UHGV virus genome: UHGV-0293664
Length of the DNA: 64,000 nucleotides
Strand: one strand, 5' to 3'
From: a virus
The notes below the pieces were generated by a model, which worked only from the letters and a program-made list of their open reading frames with translations, ran no database searches and was not told the DNA's origin. Positions 4,765-60,115 of this stretch are shown piece by piece. Each line of letters starts with the position of its first letter. The stretch's first letter is position 1. The position numbers and the translations under genes are program-made.

Positions 4765-7700
4765 ATGCTTCCAATCCCTTTGCTAAAACTTGGTCGTCAT
4801 TTCCTCGATAAGAGGGGTGGAATTAAGGAACTTGCTGTTCTGTCATACCCAATAGACAACAGTGATGGCACAAGCACTACAGTATCCTATGTAAATAGTT
4901 TAGCTATACTTTTTGATGATGGTCAACTCAATATCACGGGCTATAACAGGTTCGGAGAGTGCCGCACTGGGGGTCTTGACACGATAAACTACCCCAACGA
5001 GGCTGCCTGGAACGTTGATCATGTGTGGAGAGCAGACCGTGCGTTTGTGATCCGAACTTTTGATAACCAGTTTTTCTACATCGGCTGCACTGCAGGGCTT
5101 ATTGGGTCTGATGCTGCAGGCGGTAATGATGTTTGTGTAAGAGAGTGGACACCTCTTCCTGAACAGATCGTTAAAGGGTTGCACCTTGACACCCACCCAG
5201 AGCGCCTTATTGAAGTAATGGGCGGTATTAACAACACTATCTGGGTTATTGCAGAGGCAGAAGGCACTGGCATACTTAACCTGTATGGATCTGGTAACAA
5301 CACCTACGGATCTTTGCATGTAGATAAAAATCAGCATGCAACCCCTGTAAAGATCGGTGAGACATCGGAAAATCCTGAAACAGGCCCTTGGAAAAACCCA
5401 AGCATCAACTGCGAGGTGCATGACAACTCTGTTATTTTCGGTGGTCCTAGAGGTTTCTGGATTGCTGGATACGACTTTCTGAGAAATAACAGTAGAAACG
5501 ATCTTGTTTGGCCTCCTGTGCAGATTACTCGTAACGATTTGAGGGGCATTCCTGCAGATGAGGAGTGGAAAGGGTTTATGTGTGGTCCTAACGGGGCAAT
5601 AATTGCCACACAGAGGATGCATAGACCCGATGACCAGCAGCTTGTTAACGTATTCTACGGGCAAGACGTTTGGGGAGATGACACATGGCGTTCCTTAAAT
5701 ATCACCTACACCCATGAGGTAATAATGGCTCGTGGGTACGGCACAAGTGGCATTTTCTTCAATAATGGCACTAAGCAGTATCGTGGATTCTCTCGCAACT
5801 TGTGTAATGATATTGGCGCACAATCTGCAAACAATAGCCCTAGGGCCAATTTTATCCACTATCAAGCTCTTGCTACAGCTAAATATGTTGAGCAACGCCT
5901 GCCAGTTAGCTGGACAGAGAGTGTTTATTTCCAAGGCATCCACAGGGAAGGTTTCTTAGGAACCTTTACTGTTGTTAATGGTAAACTTTGGTGGTCAGGC
6001 ATCCCAAGGGGGAGTTTTGCAGGCTCTAACAACCTGTTTGGCGGCAGACTTAATAGTCAGGGGTTCACAGAGGTTCCTGAGAATTGGTATAAAAATGTCC
6101 CAGTAGACAGTTGGGATGTTGATGATATTTTCGACGTTAACGGTGTTAGCAGCGTTAGCAATATTTACATTGGTGACACGGTCAAGATGAAATTGAAGCC
6201 TCAGCCAGAAGGGGCTACGTTCATTATTGACAAGATTGAACTGGTAAATGCTGCAGGCACGGTTGTTACAGATGCAAATTACCAATTCTCCACCAACTGG
6301 AACCACGGCGGGGCCAATGAAGTTGTTGTTACCCAGTATAACAGAAATGTTAACAGACGTGGCCTGTACTCTGTAAAAATAACTTATCATGACAAGCATG
6401 GCACAGGCAGAACCCATACGACAAGGACTTTGAACTGGAACACCATAGTTCCTGCGTATCCGTCTAACGGCAAGTGGCATACCGTTGGTAGAAACAAGCA
6501 GTTCCATGTTAACGATACTGTATACTTTGGGCTGAATGGTACTCAGCCTGCAGTAGAAGGTGATACATCATATATGGTCCGACTCCACAGAATGGATGCT
6601 GGATCAGTCACTTACGATGTTACCCAAGAGATTTATGATCAGAGAAGAAATACCTACAACAACTTGGTGCAGACACAGGCCGTATGGGAGTTCAACCCTA
6701 ACGGCAGAGGTGGTAAAATGTTGCAGGTTAACGAGCAAAACGGAACGTCGTTAACTGTCCACAAACACCCAGACCCTTGGCCTGATCCTGGAAAACCTCA
6801 CCCAGGCGCTCGTACGCTGAAAATTGTCAGCCATGATGTAGGATATTTCGGAATACGCTGGGAAGCTACAGTAAGGTATGCCGACGGGACAACAAACAAC
6901 ATAGGGATTACACTTGGTGGCACCAGTGAAGATAACTCGCTGAAAATTGCCTACACTCCTAGAGGTATATCTATTGACAATATGGATGTTGTTCGCAATG
7001 GTTACGGCGATGTGAATGTCAAAGTTACTCTTGGCGAACATCTTGGTGGGGAAAGGATCATCATGTATGCTTTTGATCATGACCCGCGTACCAACGGAAC
7101 TTATGCAAATCAGGCATGGAGTTACCTGATAAATGCACCTGGGCCGAATACTAAAGAGTTCTACTACGGCATGAAGCGAGATGTGTGCAAGAAAACAGGA
7201 ACACATGACTGGATTGCTATCTGCGTTAAAGATGAGCGCACAGCTTGGGATGAGCCTGTTAACAGATGGTTCATAGGTATTCCTACCAGAAGTGATAAGT
7301 ATGTCGCAGAATATATTGTATGCATGGGCGGTACCAACCTGAACATGTGTTGGAACGAGGATGCAAACAAATACTCTGATTATGACTATATGAGGGACTA
7401 CTCTTGTAATCAGTGGTTTAACCAATCAACAGGATACCCTCCACGTCAGGCGAGAGTAAACCCTGCAATCTTCACAGATACGCAGGTTTTCTTGACAAAA
7501 CAGGCCAACAAGGTTCAGACCTTCAAGAATAAATACGATCCTAACAAGTGGTTCTACAACTGTTACGGCGCATTTTTCTGGGGACCTGGTGAGTTACCTG
7601 GTGGAGGATCTTGCTTGAATGAGGCAACTTACGCCAGTGACTACATCATGGGGCAGGTCAAGAAGTATAAGATAATCCCCGGTCCTGAGACTCTGGGCAA

Positions 7701-43477: not shown

Positions 43478-43700
43478 GAATGATAATCATTCTCGTTTGC
43501 AGAATAACGGGCACCCCCGGTGATTGTCTCCCGGCCCCTGTTGCCCCGGCTTGTTATTATAGTATCACACAGGACAAAGAAAGCAAGGACTTTTTGCATA
43601 AATTTTTAGACGATAATGATAATCGTTCTCATTTCATGCAGCGCCCATCCCCGGTGGTTGTCTCCCCCGTCACCGGTGCCTGCCGTCCTTTCGATATGTA
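43478..43700. repeat. tandem duplication (~120-bp unit) each carrying a GC-rich box ...CCGGTG(A/G)TTGTCTCCC...
   Basis: Both units start GATAATC.TTCTC.TTTC; boxes at 43510-43550 and 43641-43688. Confidence 0.6.
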
Positions 43701-49702: not shown

Positions 49703-50002
49703 ATGTTTATACCCGCCAATAATCTTTATTTCTTTGATGGTCAAATCGTAGACGGCGTGGAAGTTGAGATCACCGGGTGCCCTGGTGGTCAGGCTATGAC
49801 TTTTCGGAATAATGCTTTTGATGATTCTCATATCGTTATGAGAATGGAAGTTACGAAGCTGGACGACAAGAAAACACTTATTGACTATTCTGTGAAAGAT
49901 CATCCAGACTACCGCATGATCCATGGCGATTTGTGCAGTGTTGACCGTGACAAGGTGGGCGGCATTGTGATCGCTATTGTGAACGATGTTTTCTCAAACT
50001 AA
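49703..50002 (+). CDS. early protein
   Basis: ATG 49703 after AAAGGAG; 99 aa. Confidence 0.7.
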   Translation: MFIPANNLYFFDGQIVDGVEVEITGCPGGQAMTFRNNAFDDSHIVMRMEVTKLDDKKTLIDYSVKDHPDYRMIHGDLCSVDRDKVGGIVIAIVNDVFSN

Positions 50003-50019
50003 TTTCAGCAGGTGATTTT

Positions 50020-50370
50020 ATGAAAGTCAAACTATATTACCTTAATGAGCTTAACCCCCTTGCCCAGGTCCGCGCCCTGGCTAATACCTTGATTTGTGAG
50101 AAATCTGCATATTGTGTTGAGCTTAACGCCATGCGTGAACGTCTCAAAGGGGGTTACTTCGACATCCATGCTGCAATCAACGGCCTGAATATGGAATTTA
50201 TACGCTTACGTAACAGCCGCCGGAATCTGGCAAGAATGGAACAAGATCCGGCCCACCTTCGTAAGCTGGTTATTGAAAATCATCTGATGTTTAATGCCGA
50301 GGGTGATTATTACCATTTTCACCGCAAACGCTGGTACCGTGGCGGCAATACAGGCAAGAATGCAAAATAA
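50020..50370 (+). CDS. early protein
   Basis: 116-aa ORF; weak SD. Confidence 0.65.
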   Translation: MKVKLYYLNELNPLAQVRALANTLICEKSAYCVELNAMRERLKGGYFDIHAAINGLNMEFIRLRNSRRNLARMEQDPAHLRKLVIENHLMFNAEGDYYHFHRKRWYRGGNTGKNAK

Positions 50371-50571
50371 GGCCCCAGGCAGGGCCTGCAGCGATATAAT
50401 CACATAAAGGCTATGCGGTTGCATGGCCTTTATTATTTTAGCGTTACAGCGACCCCCAAGGCGCTTAAAAAAATTTTAAAGAAGTACTTGCATCAAGCCC
50501 TACAATATGGATAATAGGACGTGTCGGGGGGCGGCCCCCAATCATTAACCGGATAGATAGGAGTTAAAACC

Positions 50572-50856
50572 ATGGCTATTGTTACCGCTGGCGATGTAGT
50601 AGAAATGGAAGCAAAATACTTAAAAGCGGGTATGCATATCCTACGCAACGATCTTGAACTGGTCCTGACAATGGTTGACTATAACCCAGGGCAAGATTAT
50701 CCAAGTGTTGACTACTTTTTTAGGTATGTTGATGAAGAATTAAAAGAGGATGAGGCTTATCAGGGCGAATTCTGTAATTTCTTTTGCTCTGATGAGGTTG
50801 TAAAAGTTATCTATCAACCTGGCGTACCTTTCCCGTTGCACGCTATCAATAAATAA
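50572..50856 (+). CDS. early protein
   Basis: 94 aa; SD ATAGGAG; TTGCAT-17 nt-ATAATA box upstream. Confidence 0.75.
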   Translation: MAIVTAGDVVEMEAKYLKAGMHILRNDLELVLTMVDYNPGQDYPSVDYFFRYVDEELKEDEAYQGEFCNFFCSDEVVKVIYQPGVPFPLHAINK

Positions 50857-50911
50857 ACCTGGCGGGGCCGAAAAGGCCCCCAATTATGAAAATAAAGAGA
50901 GGTAAATCATC

Positions 50912-51145
50912 ATGATGGAACAAATTAAACGCGCTGAGGCTATTAATGGCAATGTGATCTACTTTGTCAGCAAAAACGAAAAAGGCGTACCATATGCGGC
51001 GGTAATAGTACAGCCTGACGGTGATTATTGGTTTACTGTGTACGGCGCTTATTCTTTCGGGCGTCCGGTGCATGATAGAATTTTGAAAGTAGCGAACCCC
51101 ACCGGGAAGAATATCACGGCAGAAAAATTTTTTGAAAATAATTGA
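50912..51145 (+). CDS. early protein
   Basis: 77 aa; SD AGAGAGG. Confidence 0.75.
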   Translation: MMEQIKRAEAINGNVIYFVSKNEKGVPYAAVIVQPDGDYWFTVYGAYSFGRPVHDRILKVANPTGKNITAEKFFENN

Positions 51146-51169
51146 CAACGTTTTAAATTAGTTTAAGAT
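51142..51169 (+). promoter_or_regulatory. sigma70-like promoter
   Basis: TTGACA-16 nt-TAAGAT then conserved GTATCACGTAGGG start region. Confidence 0.6.
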
Positions 51170-51226
51170 GTATCACGTAGGGGAGACAAGCGCCCTATTA
51201 AACGCAACAGGAAGAGGATAAACACC

Positions 51227-51466
51227 ATGAAAAGCAATAAAGGTTATAACGGTTACAAAAACAAAACTCATTGGAATGTAAGCCTTTGGATTAATAACGA
51301 TGAGTCATTGTACCGGTTGGCCCAAGGCTTTATCAACGCTAATGCTAATCGTAATGATGCGGCGCGGGATATGATGCTTTTTCTGGAGCTAACCGGACAA
51401 GATAAGACCCCGGACGGCTTCAAGTACAGCACTACGGCGATCCGTGCCGCGATGGTTGGAATGTGA
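51227..51466 (+). CDS. early protein
   Basis: 79 aa; SD GAAGAGGA. Confidence 0.75.
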   Translation: MKSNKGYNGYKNKTHWNVSLWINNDESLYRLAQGFINANANRNDAARDMMLFLELTGQDKTPDGFKYSTTAIRAAMVGM

Positions 51467-51475
51467 TAAAATAGC

Positions 51476-51503
51476 TTGACACTGTTTTTTATTCTGGTAT
51501 AGT
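51476..51503 (+). promoter_or_regulatory. sigma70-like promoter
   Basis: TTGACA-16 nt-TATAGT. Confidence 0.6.
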
Positions 51504-51645
51504 TTATCACATAGGACGGCACGACAGAGTACTACGGATTCGAGGGTGTCCGGTGCGGTGAACTTGCTCGCGACCTTAAGGAAGATCCAGACCTGGAAGA
51601 TCTGCCCATCACCGTAAACGGGAAAACTTACGTAAACCGTTAACC

Positions 51646-51780
51646 ATGAGAAAGATAATCATCACCTTGGGGATTGTGGCGGGATCGCTGGCGCTCTTTC
51701 CCCTTATGGTTAGATATGTGCTGATCAGTATTGTCCTGATAGTTAGTGATTTATTGGAAACGGTTGGCACCTTGTTTTAA
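51646..51780 (+). CDS. possible small membrane peptide (44 aa)
   Basis: MRKIIITLGIVAGSLALFPLMVRYVLISIVLIV...; no clear SD; not in ORF track. Confidence 0.3.
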   Translation: MRKIIITLGIVAGSLALFPLMVRYVLISIVLIVSDLLETVGTLF

Positions 51781-51792
51781 AGAGCGGTAAAA

Positions 51793-51984
51793 ATGAATAT
51801 CGAACAAGTTAGAAAGGTATTGGCGGTACTGCGTTATCATAATCATAGAAAGGTCATAGACGATCCTGATTATGTCGATTCAAGCCTGGAAGGGGATACA
51901 CTACAAGCCATAAGCAACATGCAAGAATTGCTAAAGCGCATGACAGAGAAAAACAGATCTGATTATATAGGTGACGAGATCTAA
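51793..51984 (+). CDS. early small protein
   Basis: 63-aa ORF; weak SD. Confidence 0.6.
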   Translation: MNIEQVRKVLAVLRYHNHRKVIDDPDYVDSSLEGDTLQAISNMQELLKRMTEKNRSDYIGDEI

Positions 51985-51990
51985 AATAGC

Positions 51991-52018
51991 TTGCACAATG
52001 TATCTGATAGTGTAAGAT
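51991..52018 (+). promoter_or_regulatory. sigma70-like promoter
   Basis: TTGCAC-16 nt-TAAGAT then GTATCACGTAGGG as at 51170. Confidence 0.6.
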
Positions 52019-52068
52019 GTATCACGTAGGGCGGCAATAGTGCCGCTCACAACTGGAAGGAAAACACC

Positions 52069-52272
52069 ATGACTACAGCTAACCGCCTGATCGCCGTCCT
52101 GAACAAAGCAAAGGCTAACCGCCTGGATGTTCAAATCAAAGAGCAAGCAAATGGCGAGATCCTTGCTACGGTGTCCGATGGCGGTTATGTATCGGAATCA
52201 TTTTTATCAGGGAGCTTAGATCATCTTGTTTGGAAATTAGAAATTATCGTGGAGGATATGCAGATCATCTAA
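52069..52272 (+). CDS. early small protein
   Basis: 67 aa; SD GGAAGGAAAA; terminator-like hairpin follows. Confidence 0.75.
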   Translation: MTTANRLIAVLNKAKANRLDVQIKEQANGEILATVSDGGYVSESFLSGSLDHLVWKLEIIVEDMQII

Positions 52273-52326
52273 TCTTTACAAAACAGGGCTTGTTTTTATC
52301 CTGTTTTTTGTTATACTTGTTTCACG

Positions 52327-52372
52327 GCAGGCACCTGGCGACGGGGGGAGACAATCACCGTGGGTGCCTGTC
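52327..52372 (-). repeat. inverted copy of the GC-rich box found at 43510 and 43641
   Basis: GGGGGGAGACAATCACCGTGGG is the reverse complement of CCACGGTGATTGTCTCCCC-type box; flanked by CAGGCACC/GGTGCCTG. Confidence 0.6.
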
Positions 52373-52476
52373 ATGTAAGAACTATAAAAACCGTTGACAT
52401 CTGCCAGGGGGTGGGGTAACATTTATCTTGAAGGGGCAAAAGTGCCCACACAACAACCAGAAGAGAGGAAAACATT

Positions 52477-52749
52477 ATGTCAAGCTGGATTAATCAAGAA
52501 GTCGAATCACGTTTTAATGCTATTTGGGATCTCATCGAAAAAGAGGACGGAACATCAAGCCCCTACCTCAACAATTTGGAATTCCATTTTGTGGAAGCGA
52601 TGAACGCAGAACATGATCACGAAGGTGGTGCGGATGAATTCGCTAAAGGATATGGCTTCAACAATGCCAACGAAATGATCGAGGCGGTTGTACTCCAGGC
52701 TGAGGAAGATTATCAATTAAAAACGCTTGAATTCTGCCGCCGTAAGTAA
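52477..52749 (+). CDS. early protein
   Basis: 90 aa; SD AGAGAGGAAAA. Confidence 0.75.
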   Translation: MSSWINQEVESRFNAIWDLIEKEDGTSSPYLNNLEFHFVEAMNAEHDHEGGADEFAKGYGFNNANEMIEAVVLQAEEDYQLKTLEFCRRK

Positions 52750-52811
52750 TAAGATAATGACACGGGCCAAAAGGCCCACTAAACAAAAACCACATAAAGA
52801 GGAAAAACATC

Positions 52812-53075
52812 ATGAAACGCCTTGATCAGCTCAAATTAGTTCAATATATGGCTTATCGTGTTCTTGAAGTCCAGAAAGGTAGCAAAAAAGAGGTTTGCGA
52901 GAAAGCTTATAAGATCTTCACTCGCAAAAAAGATGACTGGATGCTACGCCAGACCAAAAAGGCTGACATCTTGGGGTACCTGGAAGAAGAGATCCGACTT
53001 GAAGAGCAAGAAGAGATCCGCCGTAGTGAGGCAGATTATCAGGCCGCTTGGGAAAACTGGATGAGCAACAAATAA
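52812..53075 (+). CDS. early protein
   Basis: 87 aa; SD AAAGAGGAAAAA. Confidence 0.75.
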   Translation: MKRLDQLKLVQYMAYRVLEVQKGSKKEVCEKAYKIFTRKKDDWMLRQTKKADILGYLEEEIRLEEQEEIRRSEADYQAAWENWMSNK

Positions 53076-53140
53076 TACAACAAGGTGCACGGTCAGGGGC
53101 TTAAAGCCCCTTGATCACATAAAAATTATGCTATCCCTGG

Positions 53141-53169
53141 TTGACAGGGATCGGCAGTTTTGCTATATT
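53141..53169 (+). promoter_or_regulatory. sigma70-like promoter
   Basis: TTGACA-17 nt-TATATT; -35 embedded in CCCTGG...CAGGG inverted repeat. Confidence 0.6.
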
Positions 53170-53218
53170 CTTTTTTGAAGGGAAGTTGTAAGAAAATTAA
53201 CTAAGAGGTAAAAACACC

Positions 53219-53638
53219 ATGAACATTAAATCTAATAATCCGGCATATAGCTTTGATAACGCTTTTTGTCACGGTCCGGCGGCGAAAGGATTCGAAATCG
53301 ATGGTAAACTAATTATTGTCAATGTTGACGGGGAAGAGGTTGCAGTATATCCGGTGGCAGACGTAAAAAGCCGTTTACAATGCCGCATGGATGTTACCGC
53401 CTATCAGCTTGATCCGGTCCGCATAGTTGCCCTGGTCCTGGAGGAAGAAATTAAAGCCATGCACCATAGCAACAGGTTTATTGGTGACGCTCAGGATAAT
53501 ATGAAGGTGTGCCGCCATAAAGTTAATGAAGTGCTTAAAGAGTACGGCTATAAGGATTTAATGATCAAGCGTGATGAAAAATTCCGCTACCGTAACGACC
53601 TGGCAAATCGGATTTTTGAAATATACGAATCATTATAA
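53219..53638 (+). CDS. early protein
   Basis: 139 aa; SD TAAGAGG. Confidence 0.8.
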   Translation: MNIKSNNPAYSFDNAFCHGPAAKGFEIDGKLIIVNVDGEEVAVYPVADVKSRLQCRMDVTAYQLDPVRIVALVLEEEIKAMHHSNRFIGDAQDNMKVCRHKVNEVLKEYGYKDLMIKRDEKFRYRNDLANRIFEIYESL

Positions 53639-53656
53639 TTTCTTAACTGAATTATC

Positions 53657-53685
53657 AAGGGGCTTAAAGGCCCCTTTCTTTTTGT
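53657..53685 (+). terminator. intrinsic terminator closing the plus-strand early block
   Basis: AAGGGGC-TTAAA-GCCCCTT then TCTTTTTG. Confidence 0.8.
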
Positions 53686-56201
53686 CTGCTCTTCTCCTAC
53701 CATAAACGGCCCTACCTGGCAAGTGGAATAATTGACTAGCCATCAATCCCACACACTGTACAAATATACATGGAAAATAACTATTGCATAATTTTTCATT
53801 GTGTGGTAGCAAGTCCATTTTTACCCGTTTTCTCTCCCAAAATTGCACGTAATGCCGCTATTGCACAAATTTTAACCTGATGCACATCTCCAATATCTTG
53901 TCAACAACTAAAAATCTTTATAAGTCATACACTTACACAGCATCGAAAGCGTGTTCTACGCGAAAAATCGAGTATAACTATAGCCGCCAGATCTCAGAAT
54001 TCACGTACGCACACCATTCTATAGTCCGCTAAGTATTTATTCCAACCACAGAATAACGGAATAGTCAATACCTGTACAAAATAATTATTCGTATAAACTG
54101 CATAACATAAACCTGTCCAGGTGTCAACATTTTTCGTAAACAGTCTGAAATTGTCACGATAGGTTACTATAATCAGAGAAATCTTTAGTCGTCTAATGTT
54201 TACTGCACATAACTATACTGACTGGAATCATTAGATGACTAATAGAAAGATAAGAAATAGTTAACAATGTAATTGTTTTACCTGTAACAATAAGGCAACT
54301 ATGCAAACGAATGTCATGGCGCGACGGAGTCGCGACATAATATAAAAGCAGTAACCATCACCCCCGTGATAGTTTGTCTGCAAACTATTAATCAGATCAT
54401 AGTTGCCTTGTATTTAGTTAATCATGACATAACAAGCAAGGCAACTATAGATCTGCTAATAGTTGCCCTGCTTTTATATTATGTCATATATTATTAACCT
54501 GTTAATTGTCAGCTTGTTGGATGTTAGCTTGTCAATTATTAACTTGCTAATTGTTTTCATGCAAACGAATGTCATGGCTGATTATTTCTATGTAAATGGT
54601 TTGTTCGTAAACAGTTTATTCGGGAACAGTTTATTCGGGAACAGTGAGGCATGCAATAGTAACAATTGTTATTGTATCCAGTGTGTTGAGTATGCCCAGT
54701 GTGTCCAGTATGTCAGACAAGTTTTTCCTCTCTTTGTCAAGTGCCGCATTAAAAATTTACAAACTGGTATGGTAGCATTTTTGCGGCCCTGTTTACATTC
54801 AGCAGTGTATGTATAACCCTTGTTGTGTGGGCGTTTAGACGTCTAGACGGTTGGAAGTCTACAGGTCAATATCTAATCTATTGGCTGCTAACTATATCCC
54901 ACACAAATAGTAAGAAATATGATTGTTATATGCGTAAACTGTAACTCATGTTATCAATCCCTGTATGTATCGCCAGTGGTTCGCATAATGGGTATTATGT
55001 TAAATTGCCAGTAATGATAACGATTCTCACAATGATAGGTATTCTCATTCATCCACACAAAATAGTTTGCAAATGTTGTGCCACTGTGTGAACGGCCTGG
55101 CCTATTAATTTCTCTCACTGCCTCGATATTTGAGAATTGTTATAAGAATGAGAAGTATTCCCATTCCGTCCGCCTGGCAGCGCTCCTGTAGGTCCTGCAA
55201 GGACTCTAGCTGAAAGCTAGACCCTTCGGGCCTCCCTGTAGGTCAGGTCAAAATCGTGGTAGAATTGGGCCTGTTCAGATATTTCTGGCTGACTCTTCAG
55301 GTCTGTGTGGGAAAAGCCAACCTCTCCGGCGGGGCAGGGGGTCATGACGGTAAAATTGCAGGTCAATTAAAAAATTTACGTGGTGTATGAAGCGCTCTTC
55401 AGGTAAGGCAGGTATTATGGGATGAAACCCTCTTCAGGCAATGATATTTGTGGGTGTGATATTTGCTGGAAAGCCAGATATGACGGGACTCCCGGCGGGG
55501 CAGGGGTAGTACAGACAGGGGAAATATGGGGGATGTGGTTGGGGAAATTGATCAGGCAGGAAGAGTATGGAATATGTTACAGATATGTTAAATATGAAGG
55601 TAGGATATTTGTAGGATTTGTGTGTAAAATCAAAGACTTAAGTGGTGTTGTGGTATTTTCTATAAATAATTCAAGTTTAATAGGCAATATTTGTCTCTAT
55701 CCGCTTTGTGTGGTAAACAGATTCAGATGAGATTGGTTTACAGGTGTATACATAATATACAAATTAAAGATACAAGAAACCCCCCTCCCCCTTCGGCTAC
55801 CATTCACCTTTTCCTCTGACTGGTACTTAAACACTTATTCAGACTCTTCAGGTTATCACCCATATATCATATGGCAGTGACTGGTGTCCTCCGGCCCCTC
55901 TTTCGTCACCCGTCCGCTTCGCCATGCTAATGCCATAGCCAAATGTTCGGTTGTTCACCCTGTTCACTCAGGTGTATCTCCATACCCCTTCAAACCGAAG
56001 AGAACAGAAAACCCGAATTACTCGGTAAAAGAAAAGAGAAGAACTTAATTTTATCAGGATAGGCAAGAATGTCAAGGCATGACTGCTCACTAAACAAGCA
56101 AACAGTCATGTGTGGGAGGTAAGTGATTGTGGTGGTAGGAAATTTAGTTGAAAGATGTGTTATAGGTGCTCCAGCACTTTATCCAGGCAGCTAATTGTGT
56201 G
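53686..56201. other. 2.5-kb non-coding, AT-rich, repeat- and palindrome-rich region at convergence of plus and minus transcription
   Basis: No convincing ORF; direct repeats, large inverted repeats and tetraloop hairpins (see findings). Confidence 0.7.
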
Positions 56202-56417
56202 TCAGTCCAGCGGTTCATCCTCTACTTCACTGAAATCAATGTTCATGGTCTCCTCCCAACCATCGATCTCAGCACAAGAGTGGAGTTCTTTAGGGTTTAC
56301 CCCCAAAGCCTCAGCAACAGAGTCTATATTTAACACCTCTGGCAGGTATGATTCATCGAATTCAAGGTAAATCAGGCCACGAGTGTTGTCAGCTCCACCA
56401 AATATCTCTATCTTCAT
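56202..56417 (-). CDS. small acidic protein
   Basis: 71 aa; GAGGAG SD 6 nt upstream. Confidence 0.75.
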   Translation of the reverse strand: MKIEIFGGADNTRGLIYLEFDESYLPEVLNIDSVAEALGVNPKELHSCAEIDGWEETMNIDFSEVEDEPLD

Positions 56418-56538
56418 TGAATCTCCTCTGGAAATGAGAGTGTGAACAGGGTTTCATACGTTACAACACGCTGGAATTATGCACGTTTGCCTCTTCAGGC
56501 CATGCTCTAGCATGAGGAACCTGTGTGGGCTCGGTGCT

Positions 56539-56943
56539 TCATAGTCTACCACCTCTGAACTCTTCGTGCTCAGGCATAATAGAGAACCAGATATCTACGA
56601 TGTCTCCCCACGTCAAGTCATCAGCCTCAGGATCTACCTGGAGCGAAGATGGAGAATCTTCAGAATCGAAGTTTTCCCCTTTCACTGGCTCAGCCAGGCT
56701 ACATATGGTCGTCACTCCTTCAGATGCATGTATGTTGATCATGTTCCACCCGTGAGTATTCCGGCAACAGCCGCTATGGACGTAATGATCATCAGGATCA
56801 CCACTAAAACCTCGGATAATGTTCTCATTGTGTATTCCATATTCTCCAAACGATGTGTGGATACTATCACGAGAGCGGTAATGTGTCAACAGAAACGCCG
56901 CGAGGGTTTGGTTAAAATCCGAGCGTATGGTGATTTTGGTCAA
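56539..56943 (-). CDS. possible acidic protein (start uncertain)
   Basis: 134-aa ORF with TTG at track start; lies downstream of a minus-strand terminator; competing plus-strand ORF looks low-complexity. Confidence 0.35.
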   Translation of the reverse strand: MTKITIRSDFNQTLAAFLLTHYRSRDSIHTSFGEYGIHNENIIRGFSGDPDDHYVHSGCCRNTHGWNMINIHASEGVTTICSLAEPVKGENFDSEDSPSSLQVDPEADDLTWGDIVDIWFSIMPEHEEFRGGRL

Positions 56944-57049
56944 AACGGACGTGCGTTCTCGCTACGCTCGAAATAGAGAGTTGCTTGTAAGCCGCCCTTA
57001 AACGCTCTGTAATGAGATTAACTGCTTAAGGTATGGAATCGTTCACCGG

Positions 57050-57078
57050 ATAAAGAAAAGGACGCCACAGAGCGTCCT
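57050..57078 (-). terminator. intrinsic terminator (minus strand)
   Basis: On minus strand AGGACGC-TCTGTG-GCGTCCT then TTTTCTTTA. Confidence 0.7.
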
Positions 57079-57102
57079 ATGTGCCTTAAATTTGATACTT
57101 TG

Positions 57103-57402
57103 CTATACCCATGAAGGCTTGTCTAGGTTTGAGTAACTAAAAGGTGTCAAAAGGTGACTGTCAAAATCTTTCAAACTATCCAGATCTTTTTCCTCGTCTT
57201 GACACCATCTGTGCCTACATTTATTGTTGTAGTGCATGGAGTGCATAGCGTTCTGCAACTTAACAGGTACAAGGGATTCAGGAGTAGATAGTATTGTTGG
57301 GTATGCCAGAACCACCTCAAACAATGGAAACACATCGAAACTGAAGTTTATTTCTGCTGAGGTTGCTGGCATATAGGAGTATTTAGCTGTCGTTGTAGAC
57401 AT
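57103..57402 (-). CDS. hypothetical protein
   Basis: ATG at 57402 after GAGGTGG; track start 57414 is GTG. Confidence 0.65.
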   Translation of the reverse strand: MSTTTAKYSYMPATSAEINFSFDVFPLFEVVLAYPTILSTPESLVPVKLQNAMHSMHYNNKCRHRWCQDEEKDLDSLKDFDSHLLTPFSYSNLDKPSWV

Positions 57403-57410
57403 AATCCACC

Positions 57411-57794
57411 TCACACAGGCTTGATAATACCTTCACCGAATAACTCTTCATATTTAATCTTATCAGGATCCCACTCTTGGATAATTTCGAAGACAATGTC
57501 CAGCCCAGGGATAATCACTTCTCCAGTATCAAGTCTGGCAAGAACAAAACCGGAAGGTTGAATGGTTTCCCAGTTGCGACGATTAGAATAGAGAACTTCG
57601 AAAATATCGCCAACCGCAATCTGCTGATCAAGATGTTCAAGATTTTCTTTCATATAGACGCAGCGGATTTTTCGTGCAGGCCATAGACCGCCTGCATCAC
57701 GTTCATTTAGCTCTTTTACAGTAATCGGTATACCCATCTCAAAATCTCCTTCATAGATAGTAAAAAGAGGGGCCCAAGCCCCTCTCTTTGTCAT
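57411..57794 (-). CDS. hypothetical protein
   Basis: 127-aa ORF with ATG overlapping upstream stop; alternative internal ATG 57737 has AAGGAG SD. Confidence 0.7.
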   Translation of the reverse strand: MTKRGAWAPLFTIYEGDFEMGIPITVKELNERDAGGLWPARKIRCVYMKENLEHLDQQIAVGDIFEVLYSNRRNWETIQPSGFVLARLDTGEVIIPGLDIVFEIIQEWDPDKIKYEELFGEGIIKPV

Positions 57795-58099
57795 TATTCT
57801 ACAGAGCGTTTGAACAGAATGTCTGCTTCAGACATGTGCTCAACCTCTTCTTCGATTTTAGCTCGACGTTTTTCAGCTTCGTAGCGGATATCGAATTCGG
57901 TAGCCACCAATGACTTGATAAACTTAGGAGAATACAGGTGATCCTGTTTCTCGACAAGAATAATATCCTTGATAGCGTCTTTCAGATCTTTAATCTGAAG
58001 CTGAAGTTCCACCAGCTCTTCAATTGTTTTACGGAGGCGATCACGCTCTGCAGTGTCAGAAGGCAGAGAGGTGAACAGTTCAACTTTAGATTTAGCCAT
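57794..58099 (-). CDS. coiled-coil protein
   Basis: 101 aa; AAGGAG SD; Glu/Lys-rich heptads. Confidence 0.75.
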   Translation of the reverse strand: MAKSKVELFTSLPSDTAERDRLRKTIEELVELQLQIKDLKDAIKDIILVEKQDHLYSPKFIKSLVATEFDIRYEAEKRRAKIEEEVEHMSEADILFKRSVE

Positions 58100-58127
58100 A
58101 GTAAGAGTCTCCTTATATTGTTTTAAA

Positions 58128-58379
58128 TTAACGTTCTACAAAAATACCGTTCAGTTCGATAACCAGGAATTTCTGGTCTTCACTATCGTCACGTGCCAGC
58201 ACCTCACAGACGTAACGGTCATCTCCGTCATCATCGCAGTCAAATACAAGGCTGAGGACTTTATCATGATAAACCTTCGCCACTACCGCCTCGTAAGTGT
58301 TGCCGATTGTGAATCCAAGATAGTCCCCGATGCATTTGACAACAACATGGTCGCCAGCATTTAAGTCAATCTTCGTCAT
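58128..58379 (-). CDS. small acidic protein
   Basis: ATG 58379 after AAGGAG; track start 58445 lacks SD. Confidence 0.7.
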   Translation of the reverse strand: MTKIDLNAGDHVVVKCIGDYLGFTIGNTYEAVVAKVYHDKVLSLVFDCDDDGDDRYVCEVLARDDSEDQKFLVIELNGIFVER

Positions 58380-58534
58380 TACTGTGCTCCTTGGGTGATA
58401 ATATGGTATGTAAAACTTTAACCAGAGATGTGAATAACGCCCCAAAACACACAGATAGCGCTAAAACGGATAAGGCCATCATTAAAGCTTCAGTAAAATC
58501 AGTCATTCCTCACCTCTTGTTAGTAACTATACTA

Positions 58535-58798
58535 TCATTTGTCTTTGCCGTCAAGAACTTTTTTAAATCTCTCAGGAATATCTCCTGTTCTTAGATAGTT
58601 CATGACCTCACAAGGTTCCCACTTAAACTTCTTACACAGCAGGGCGGCTGAGATTGTCTCATTGCGAAAAGAAAGGATATTAATATCCCACTCTGAGAAC
58701 CCTAATTTCCGAAGAGTGGCTATAGAAATCCTCACAGCAACCCAACAAGAGAGGCACGCAACAAACGCTACTGCTACAACCCACACCAAGATGTTCAT
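58535..58798 (-). CDS. membrane protein
   Basis: 87 aa; hydrophobic N-terminus; AAGGGGG SD. Confidence 0.7.
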   Translation of the reverse strand: MNILVWVVAVAFVACLSCWVAVRISIATLRKLGFSEWDINILSFRNETISAALLCKKFKWEPCEVMNYLRTGDIPERFKKVLDGKDK

Positions 58799-58887
58799 AC
58801 AGCCCCCTTAATGAAATACAAGACATAGTGCCAAGGTCACTATCCAGCAAATAATTAACAGTGCCGTTGCAACCTTGGCAAGATTTA

Positions 58888-59175
58888 TCATAGCGTCTCT
58901 AAAATTTCATACCCTTCGGGTCGGAAAACAAGCCACTCAGGTGCTCCATTTGGTCGATACGCTTTATACAGAACAACCTGATCTCGGCACATACACATTG
59001 CTACATAGTTTTCATCCACACCTGCAGCCTGCATTGCATCTTCTTCTCCGGCAACCGCTTTGCTTACAACTTCCTTGGTAGGCAGGTGGGCGATCAGTTC
59101 GTCACCATCGTTAATTCCAAAATGGCTGAGTTCTCCATTGGTGTCTTTAATCTTGATCTTAACCAAATCTTTCAT
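58888..59175 (-). CDS. small acidic protein
   Basis: 95 aa; start overlaps upstream stop. Confidence 0.75.
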   Translation of the reverse strand: MKDLVKIKIKDTNGELSHFGINDGDELIAHLPTKEVVSKAVAGEEDAMQAAGVDENYVAMCMCRDQVVLYKAYRPNGAPEWLVFRPEGYEILETL

Positions 59176-59504
59176 TAGTCTTCCCCCAAGTTCAAAGGCC
59201 CTAAGATCTCATATGCCAGATTAGAGGTTACCAGGGGATCTTCTGCATCTTTAGTATTATACCACCCGTGAATAACCAGAGTCCCACTTTGCTTCATGTC
59301 TAACTGGAACTGTTCTGCCGTTTCCTCATCCATCTCCAAGATCTCCATGAGGTATTTGATGTTAGGAAGGTATGCAGCTGTTACAGTCCCCTCTACCAGG
59401 CCTTCAGGCCAACCTACATCCGGATGACAAGTAGGGACCAGAGAGGTCAGCTTGATAGTGTATGCTTTTTCTGCACGAGCCTTCAGTAACGGATCAATTT
59501 TCAT
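59175..59504 (-). CDS. small acidic protein
   Basis: 109 aa; translationally coupled. Confidence 0.75.
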   Translation of the reverse strand: MKIDPLLKARAEKAYTIKLTSLVPTCHPDVGWPEGLVEGTVTAAYLPNIKYLMEILEMDEETAEQFQLDMKQSGTLVIHGWYNTKDAEDPLVTSNLAYEILGPLNLGED

Positions 59505-59854
59505 TATTCTTCCTCCTCTGCGGTGCCTGCTTCCAGTAGTAAGTTAAGAACATCTTCAGCAGAAGGTTCGTAGAACTCTTGGCCTTCGTTGTCGATGACA
59601 CGATAGTCATCACCACGAATAATCAGAGGATCGTTATCAAAACCTTCAAGACCTTTAACAACGACAACACGGTCGATTGCCATCATTGTAAGAACTTTAT
59701 CAACACCTTCCTCTGCCACACCATACTGCAGCAGAATGTCTTTGGTAGGAGGAACAGCATCAACCACAACACCGTTACCAAAACCTTCCGGAAGTTTAGC
59801 TAAAATATCTTCCGGAACCGCATTCATATCAAAACCTGTGATCTCTACTTTCAT
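59504..59854 (-). CDS. small acidic protein (related to family B)
   Basis: 116 aa; poly-Glu C-terminus; MKVEITG...PEGFGNG. Confidence 0.75.
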   Translation of the reverse strand: MKVEITGFDMNAVPEDILAKLPEGFGNGVVVDAVPPTKDILLQYGVAEEGVDKVLTMMAIDRVVVVKGLEGFDNDPLIIRGDDYRVIDNEGQEFYEPSAEDVLNLLLEAGTAEEEE

Positions 59855-60115
59855 TTACAGCACCTCTTCGTCAACTACTTCATAAAAATGGCTCGGGATT
59901 GCAATAGCGTTCTCACCTTCACCTACAAACACAGTCCCGTCAAGGATCAACATCATAAGAATGTCTGTAATATCCTCCTCCGGAACGTTGCCAAAACCTT
60001 TAATCAACTTACATGTCGGGACATTCGCCTCTAGGATGTCTCCATCTTTAGAACGGAAATCAACACCTTCCTGAATCTCTGCCGTTTCAAGGTTTTTCAA
60101 TTTAATCTTCATCAA
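59855..60115 (-). CDS. small acidic protein, family B
   Basis: 86 aa; AGGAG SD; MKIKL...FVGEGENAIAIPSHFYEVVDEE paralogous to 61280-61549. Confidence 0.75.
   Translation of the reverse strand: MMKIKLKNLETAEIQEGVDFRSKDGDILEANVPTCKLIKGFGNVPEEDITDILMMLILDGTVFVGEGENAIAIPSHFYEVVDEEVL

Follow-up and report, generated by a model that had tools for sequence, protein, structure and literature searches.

A conserved box and branched DNA palindrome beside the predicted terminal repeat of rV5-like phages: a possible cis element for genome-end processing or packaging

How phages with short, exact terminal repeats recognise the concatemer junction and duplicate the repeat has been only partly worked out, and essentially in T7 and T3 alone. 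The T7 terminal repeat is flanked by arrays of short repeats, and short repeated elements also bracket the region beside the cut in other phages, i.e., the R sites of lambda cosB and the pacL and pacR sites of SPP1, with a polarity that is set by the end. Hairpin DNA containing the terminal repeat has been reported from T7 infection, and in coliphage N4 inverted repeats have been described together with hairpin priming of synthesis, preferentially at the right end. Here we describe an element made up of an asymmetric box, a branched palindrome and a pair of identical 20-mers in a 64,000-nucleotide stretch of the virus genome UHGV-0293664 (hereafter the window), which comes from a Vequintavirus (rV5-like) coliphage. 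It quite possibly represents, judged from sequence comparison, a conserved non-coding cis element that acts at the DNA level in genome-end processing or packaging at the concatemer junction.

The element lies in a gene-free region of about 2.5 kb, at a strand switch, that separates two convergent gene blocks. Fourteen relatives were aligned to the window to describe conservation within the genus, and column figures are taken from 13 of these, phage FV3 being excluded. The parts of the element, in window coordinates, are as follows.

54292–54302, + strand: first copy of AAGGCAACTAT, exact and abutting the first 20-mer; 10 of 11 columns invariant in the 13 relatives
54301–54320, + strand: first copy of the 20-mer ATGCAAACGAATGTCATGGC, sharing its final 4 nt with the start of the box
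54317–54342, + strand: asymmetric box TGGCGCGAC-GGAGTC-GCGACATAATA, which precedes the palindrome
54321–54335, no strand: GC mini-hairpin CGCGAC-GGA-GTCGCG within the box, from the fold; invariant in the genus
54334–54351, no strand: left arm of the outer stem, GACATAATATAAAAGCAG, half of a perfect 18-nt inverted repeat
54353–54374, no strand: side hairpin AACCATCAC-CCCC-GTGATAGTT with a C-rich loop, from the fold
54379–54410, no strand: inner arm A, GCAAACTAT-N10-ATAGTTGCCTTG, holding the second copy of AAGGCAACTAT (−)
54437–54470, no strand: inner arm B, CAAGGCAACTAT-N10-ATAGTTGCCC, holding the third (+) and fourth (−, one mismatch) copies of AAGGCAACTAT
54468–54485, no strand: right arm of the outer stem, CTGCTTTTATATTATGTC; 18 of 18 columns invariant
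54559–54578, + strand: second copy of the 20-mer; 19 of 20 columns invariant between hypervariable neighbours

As the first-pass annotation had reported, the 20-mer is present as two identical copies, both on the + strand; no further copy was found in the window even at 3 mismatches, and the chance expectation is 0 matches (100 shuffles). Each copy is invariant in 19 of 20 columns, the lone T/G polymorphism falling at position 14 in either copy, and both stand as conserved islands beside sequence with identities of 0.53 and 0.60. The same annotation had AAGGCAACTAT alternating with its complement at four places, of which three hold exact copies, at 54292 (+), 54399 (−) and 54438 (+); the fourth, which it had put at about 54455, is a copy with one mismatch, ATAGTTGCCCT, at 54459 (−). 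At up to 1 mismatch, AAGGCAACTAT has 7 matches in the window against 1.8 expected, with 4 lying within 180 nt. The stretch GCGCGACGGAGTCGCGAC (54320–54337), also put forward as palindromic, does hold a 6-bp stem with a 3-nt loop, CGCGAC-GGA-GTCGCG, and folds in this way.

The perfect 18-nt inverted repeat (54334–54351 and 54468–54485) closes the inner palindromes into one branched hairpin of 152 nt. Folded as single-stranded DNA, 54334–54485 gives a three-way structure composed of the 18-bp outer stem, the side hairpin and a long inner hairpin, in which inner arm B pairs with inner arm A and whose arms are the AAGGCAACTAT sites (dG −48.2 kcal/mol; z = −9.55 against shuffles). RNA folds of the palindrome are likewise extreme on both strands (z = −7.4 and −9.2). 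The palindrome and repeat search and the DNA folding therefore agree with the idea of a large cruciform-capable palindrome, in that the repeats are conserved in relatives, a strong structure is predicted, and the outer stem shows compensatory change and no mismatch. The two inner palindromic sites, TAATCAGATC and AGATCTGCTA, each have a GATC (Dam) site within the 10-nt spacer (54394–54397 and 54450–54453), which may be chance.

Within Vequintavirus, the 13 relatives show no variation in the box (26 of 26 columns; single-copy in the window), in the GC hairpin or in either outer arm, and 118 phage records contain the inner module, mostly at an identity of at least 95%. With an invariant asymmetric box and two 20-mers that form conserved islands, the protein-binding array that had been suggested for this locus is a plausible reading of the sequence. 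A short motif array (WTTRTGTC or ATGTCA) running toward the cut site was considered and dropped, with 13 matches against 11.8 expected in the window.

Beyond the genus, the box takes the general form TGGCGCGAC-N3-9-GCGACAYAATA. A box search found it in Avunavirus Av-05, TH18, KLEP7, UPEC06, LNA4 and metagenome contigs, in Mydovirus (KPP-1 and many Klebsiella, Proteus and Raoultella phages) and in Seunavirus. About 57 additional records, of Klebsiella, Escherichia, Raoultella, Proteus, Cronobacter, Enterobacter, Serratia and Pseudaeromonas phages, have it at one copy per genome. In all homologues that were inspected closely, a perfect inverted repeat of 16–22 nt, starting GACAY(A/T)ATA, follows the box. 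Box and perfect 16–22-bp outer stem occur together, once per genome, in at least six lineages, namely Vequintavirus, Avunavirus, Mydovirus, Seunavirus, the UPEC06-like phages and Pseudaeromonas phage KLEP7. Eight of the 17 metagenome matches (L027 and L031–L037) have no inverted repeat at all and were set aside as chance. The GC mini-hairpin is perfect in Vequintavirus only, other lineages having CGGAGGGA or CGTAGGGA at this place and no stem, and multiple direct copies of the right arm are found in Av-05 and TH18 only. For nine homologues from other lineages the predicted fold is in every case a closed branched palindrome (z between −7.7 and −13.3).

The neighbouring 139-aa protein, searched against IMG/VR, matched three loci only, one of which (L008) has no homologous non-coding region. 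The divergent IMG/VR contig L006 has a non-coding region that is almost unalignable to that of the window and nonetheless has the same architecture: the box is followed by a perfect 17-bp outer stem of different sequence (GACATAATAACGCTGAG), and the side hairpin AATAACAC-CCCC-GTGTTATT keeps the same C-rich loop with compensatory changes in its stem. We scored covariation in an alignment of five arm types over 17 outer-stem pairs, i.e., 85 cells. Eight pairs are invariant and nine differ on both sides; one-sided changes are absent, and all cells are Watson-Crick without a single G-U pair; this level was reached by none of 500 shuffles, and controls slid along the alignment pair at 25–49%. Six arm spellings are known in total, the sixth being that of UPEC06. 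The absence of G-U pairs and of one-sided changes points to selection or homogenisation at the level of DNA. In the metagenome contig L026 (OLOT01000016) the palindrome interior has gained several GC-rich mini-hairpins (GTAGC...GCTAC and GGAGC...GCTCC) and the spacer has grown from 82 to 211 nt, the 17-bp outer stem still being perfect.

The 20-mers are the Vequintavirus form of a bracket repeat, i.e., sequence 5' of the box that recurs 3' of the palindrome, which is seen in three lineages. The two copies agree at 20 of 25 positions in Vequintavirus and at 22 of 25 (21 nt exact) in L006-type contigs, where the spacings are 243, 288 and 370 nt; L006 itself carries the 21-nt direct repeat TATGCAACGATAACATGGCGC twice, 243 nt apart. 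UPEC06 has 15 exact nt. The repeat was not found in Av-05, TH18, KLEP7, KPP-1 or LNA4. Its spelling is specific to each lineage, and the two copies therefore change together. The bracket repeats are an addition made at the level of clades, whereas the deeper core consists of box and palindrome.

The context that we consider decisive, and that was missing from the first-pass annotation, is adjacency to a predicted direct terminal repeat (DTR). The features between the palindrome and the end of this repeat are listed here, together with an open reading frame (ORF) that overlaps them.

54486–54558, no strand: hypervariable cassette between the palindrome and the second 20-mer; mean identity 0.53, 84 inserted alignment columns
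54599–54645, no strand: tandem 15-mer GTTTATTCGGGAACA, 3.1 copies (Tandem Repeats Finder); copy number varies among relatives
54677–54714, no strand: tandem 18-mer/9-mer CCAGTGTGTCCAGTATGC (Tandem Repeats Finder), ending at the terminal-repeat boundary
54716–55174, no strand: predicted DTR of 459 bp, by homology to phage Gotham; present once in the collapsed assembly
54463–54816, + strand: Cys-rich ORF of 117 aa, spurious, crossing the DTR boundary

Gotham was published with 459-bp terminal repeats, and its repeat_region features 1–459 and 136567–137025 map to window positions 55174–54716; Gotham and ECP2309 carry an identical 459-nt sequence at both record ends. Redundancies of 458 bp have been published for EdH4 and HdK5, and a number of database records have their first or last nucleotide here. 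Since the Gotham repeats map to 54716–55174, the repeats and palindrome of the window are placed at the concatemer junction, 116–426 nt before the DTR. From the right arm to the DTR start there are 230 nt in the window (ends by homology to Gotham), 236 nt in UPEC06 (462 identical nt at both record ends) and 308 nt in KPP-1, for which a 514-bp DTR and T7-type packaging were assigned by PhageTerm. The order box, palindrome, 230–310 nt, DTR is common to the three lineages with mapped or duplicated ends; the KPP-1 box is on the other strand, so that the polarity from box through palindrome to DTR is unchanged. This fixed polarity and distance to the DTR are shown by the present comparison, as are the anatomy, conservation, covariation and single-copy state of the element. 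The DTR begins GACAA in both the window (GACAAG...) and UPEC06, and UPEC06 likewise has a tandem repeat ahead of its DTR, within which its second bracket-repeat copy falls.

Relatives carry an unrelated GC-hairpin cassette in place of 54486–54558; the stretch before the DTR (54579–54715) has a mean identity of 0.60 and tandem repeats of variable copy number, and the stretch directly past it (55175–55260) has a mean identity of 0.59. Both outer flanks (54490–54715 and 55175–55260) are hypervariable and indel-rich, at identities of 0.53–0.60, with alternative cassettes and differing tandem-repeat copy numbers among relatives, unlike the DTR and the remaining non-coding block, which are 91–99% conserved. 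Weaker AATGATAAnnATTnTCATT palindromes were also seen within or near the terminal repeat of several genera, in KPP-1 (L044 2940–3164), L008 (4669–5656), Av-05 (L019 2338–2422) and the window DTR (55011–55053).

For the proposed role in end processing or packaging, what we infer is protein binding, extrusion of the hairpin in vivo and a part in cutting, packaging or copying of the DTR. On replicating concatemers the box would be recognised, in a polar and sequence-specific manner, by a conserved phage protein, which would most economically be the terminase. The palindrome would extrude as a hairpin or cruciform once the duplex is unwound, nicked or supercoiled, and could then be a structural landmark or loading site; alternatively, it could be a fold-back primer for the synthesis by which the DTR must be duplicated ahead of the two cuts. 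The two 20-mers might form a site pair for one factor, bracketing and perhaps looping out the palindrome. By analogy with T7 and N4, the element could thereby guide terminase recognition, DTR-duplicating DNA synthesis, or both. A bolder version, which we rate as rather doubtful, is that the Vequintavirinae and relatives such as KLEP7 mark the genome end by a structure-specific DNA signal. Here an invariant asymmetric box would be joined to a three-way-junction palindrome whose stem drifts yet never mispairs, and the terminase or replisome would read it so as to position both cuts and DTR copying about 230–310 nt away.

Several points weigh against a role in end processing. FV3 (L018, JQ031132; 1652–1671) is without exactly 54321–54578 and keeps one 20-mer, and the deletion removes most of the box and the entire palindrome; should this sequence be correct, the element may be dispensable under laboratory conditions. 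The gap has the signature of a deletion between direct repeats, as read from the sequence, and may be either a real deletion by recombination or slippage or an artefact that the palindrome produced during cloning or assembly. It is seen in 1 of about 120 records, and SYGMH1, another isolate of the same species, keeps the module. Furthermore, the outer arms are 116 nt apart, and extrusion from relaxed duplex would be slow unless it began from the inner palindromes. The absence of bracket 20-mers from the five phages named above means that they are no universal part of the mechanism. Published accounts of packaging in the subfamily also disagree: PhiTE and PVP-SE1 have been called circularly permuted in older, restriction-based reports, and one Vequintavirus of a phage cocktail was called headful by PhageTerm. 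Finally, the link to the DTR could be mere inherited synteny of an ancestral non-coding region rather than independent functional evidence.

The main rival is a replication origin or priming element, which we regard as unlikely, although it may coexist with end processing. The box and 20-mers would in that case bind an initiator or helicase-primase, and the palindrome would either load the replisome by melting or extruding or prime synthesis by folding back. The setting suits such a role: the rV5 authors examined this large gene-free stretch, which sits at a strand switch, while seeking the origin, and it has repeated sites, strongly structured DNA and an AT-rich stretch at 54476–54560 (GC content falls to 36% in 54001–55000); inverted repeats near the right end prime replication in N4, and T7 packaging substrates needed origin as well as junction, to go by the title of a cited reference. 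However, there is no iteron array, only two direct 20-mers whose spacing is 243–370 nt in relatives and which five lineages lack; many relatives have a GC hairpin instead of the AT-rich stretch, which is the hypervariable cassette; and the FV3 deletion counts here too. An iteron-type origin in the classical sense was rejected, there being two copies only, no conserved AT-rich unwinding element and no initiator gene nearby. Host DnaA, named earlier as a possible binder, is unsupported: DnaA boxes (TTATCCACA, up to 1 mismatch) are not enriched in the window, with 22 matches against 19.7 expected, and the region has a single 8-of-9 site. Action of the palindrome at the RNA level, as a structured non-coding RNA or a bidirectional intrinsic terminator for convergent read-through, strikes us as improbable. 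The terminator reading agrees only loosely with the window. The terminator test gave one terminator-like call on the − strand (54374–54353 with a T-rich tail), the inner-arm-B (I8) hairpin is followed on the + strand by TTTTATATTAT, the outer arms are A-rich and T-rich (the right one T-rich) as bidirectional terminators have them, the RNA folds are very stable on both strands, and some lineages have weak promoter-like sites 120–170 nt upstream. Yet the arms of other lineages are not U-rich (GACACAATAACGCAGTAG, CGACATAATATAACCAATCGGT) while the stem is still perfect, and perfect complementarity over 85 cells would be unusual under selection on RNA; a strong terminator already stands at 53657–53676 after the final + strand gene, a promoter scan of six lineages found only weak sites that were inconsistent between them, and an Rfam search of 50000–60000 at E up to 1 returned nothing save an unrelated weak match at 57725. 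A tRNA and tmRNA search found none.

The element could also be an evolutionary by-product, with the palindrome homogenised by hairpin-templated repair and the 20-mers a remnant duplication that makes it prone to deletion. We give this little credence, although gene conversion can maintain perfect arms, the inner content is lineage-specific and indel-rich, and FV3 lost the exact interval between the 20-mers, which is a classic route of deletion for palindromes flanked by direct repeats. Against it stand the presence of the element at one syntenic site in more than 170 genomes and at least six lineages, its single-copy state, which does not fit a mobile element, the two 20-mers as conserved islands in hypervariable DNA, and the 26-nt asymmetric box, which is itself no part of the symmetry and is nevertheless invariant in the genus and nearly so between genera. 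That the 20-mers are start codons of small genes, among them the Cys-rich 117-aa ORF, is very improbable indeed. Both do open with ATG, and the frame 54463–54816 is open in the window, but stops or frameshifts interrupt it in 13 of 14 relatives, and its length difference is not a multiple of 3 in 10 of 14; it crosses the DTR boundary and has no Pfam match at E up to 1. In addition, the homologous repeat of L006 reads ATG CAA CGA TAA, and the first copy would encode just 14 residues. The 20-mers as gene starts were rejected on these broken frames, the ORF is spurious, and the doubt that had been attached to it was correct.

Other identities were considered and discarded. A miniature inverted-repeat transposable element or other transposon was rejected because the element is single-copy, at one place per record, and because the geometry is wrong, with gaps of 13 and 73 nt between arms and 20-mers. 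The non-coding pseudo-ToxI repeats of PhiTE belong to a different locus and are not relevant, and the repeat_region features of phage isim are merely small local repeats. The region contains no match to the Fur-box consensus within 3 mismatches, the sole match being elsewhere, a near-consensus box (17/19, GATAATGATAATCGTTCTC) at 43612–43630. Contig L006 carries three tandem perfect DnaA boxes (TGTGGATAA) at 5839–5886, about 270 nt past its probable terminal-repeat start, a cluster that has no equivalent in the window.

Window positions 53600–55500 match 121 phage records at 88–95% identity. The final gene of the + strand block runs to 53638, and the first of the − strand block has its end at 56202; well-curated relatives have zero genes annotated between these positions, and no conserved ORF was found in 53640–56200. 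The rV5 genome paper draws the block as "non-coding" and notes a skew change there. The cumulative GC skew has its maximum in the region because transcription converges there. Some records are nevertheless filled with small coding sequences (CDSs), e.g., about 16 tiny 'hypothetical protein' CDSs in NHEP1 (L009, PQ511146; 967–3390), a CDS labelled 'structural protein' in APECc02 (L014; 2662–2935), and others in UPEC06 (L046); these are almost certainly over-annotation of the non-coding junction. About 18 GenBank records of the series MG0656xx (e.g., MG065646, MG065672 and MG065690), with best matches to the region of up to 95% identity, carry the label 'Campylobacter phage', several of them marked UNVERIFIED, yet match E. 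coli Vequintavirus, and their host labels look doubtful.

On the far side of the terminal repeat there is a second repeat family, CTCTTCAGG, at 55293–55302, 55395–55404 and 55430–55439, and also at about 55845 and 56488. The same core recurs in the divergent L006 (6361–6378, 6467–6483, 6717–6734 and 8203–8233), and the family appears as ACCCTTCAGAGAT in Av-05 and TH18 (L019 3625–3684). Further on, the 351-nt non-coding stretch 55790–56140 has 98.8% identity across the 13 relatives, exceeding the conservation of the DTR. It contains a near-consensus − strand promoter at 56075–56048 (TTGACA, 16-nt spacer, TAAAAT, with TG) and, downstream of this, a terminator-like hairpin at 56025–56013. We regard the stretch, which has no Rfam match, as a candidate small RNA or other cis element.

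The Vequintavirinae are widely used as therapy and biocontrol phages, and their 2.5-kb non-coding block has gone unexplained since the rV5 genome paper. A compact candidate signal is now available, whose parts are the box, the covarying palindrome, the bracket repeats and a fixed distance to the terminal repeat. The analysis also accounts for the breaks and starting points that assemblies and database records of these phages have there, and marks the small ORFs annotated in the region as spurious. Should the bolder version above hold, myoviruses with a short DTR would have their first defined signal for packaging or end duplication, and one read as extruded DNA structure instead of linear sequence. 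If the element is the packaging signal, it could be used for transducing or packaging vectors and for phage engineering. We found no earlier description of the element; the rV5 paper marks the non-coding block and later papers give the repeat length only, and a literature search on KLEP7 returned nothing relevant.

Compared with known systems, the likeness to lambda cosB and SPP1 pac is one of analogy, in that short repeats bracket a region near the cut with a defined polarity. In those phages, however, the cut falls within or right beside the site, no DTR is generated and there is no long covarying palindrome. Iteron origins of the lambda ori type share repeats of about 20 bp, dyad symmetry and AT-rich non-coding DNA with the locus described here, which differs in that the direct copies number only two and are variably spaced, no AT-rich unwinding element is conserved and no initiator gene stands next to it. 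Coliphage N4 has a DTR of similar size (about 400–500 bp) and inverted repeats near one end that were proposed to fold back and start DNA synthesis, but it is an unrelated podovirus whose inverted repeats lie at 3' terminal extensions, whereas the palindrome here is 230 nt internal to the repeat. The T7/T3 junction is like this one in its short, exact DTR (160 bp in T7 versus 459 bp here), in the cis sequences in unique DNA beside the repeat that accompany end formation, and in the T7-type class that PhageTerm gives to the related KPP-1; in the window, too, short tandem repeats of variable copy number abut the terminal-repeat boundary. The right-end origin of T7 adjoins the concatemer junction and offers a model for how an origin and end processing could coexist. 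No sequence similarity to T7 or T3 was found, and rV5-like phages are myoviruses without a phage RNA polymerase, to which the transcription-coupled steps of T7 cannot apply as such. We know of no described T7 feature that joins bracketing 20-mers and an adjacent invariant box to a long, preformed branched palindrome. The element would be of a known kind, the cis signals at phage genome ends, in what is to our knowledge a novel form, i.e., an invariant box joined to a covarying branched palindrome and bracket repeats.

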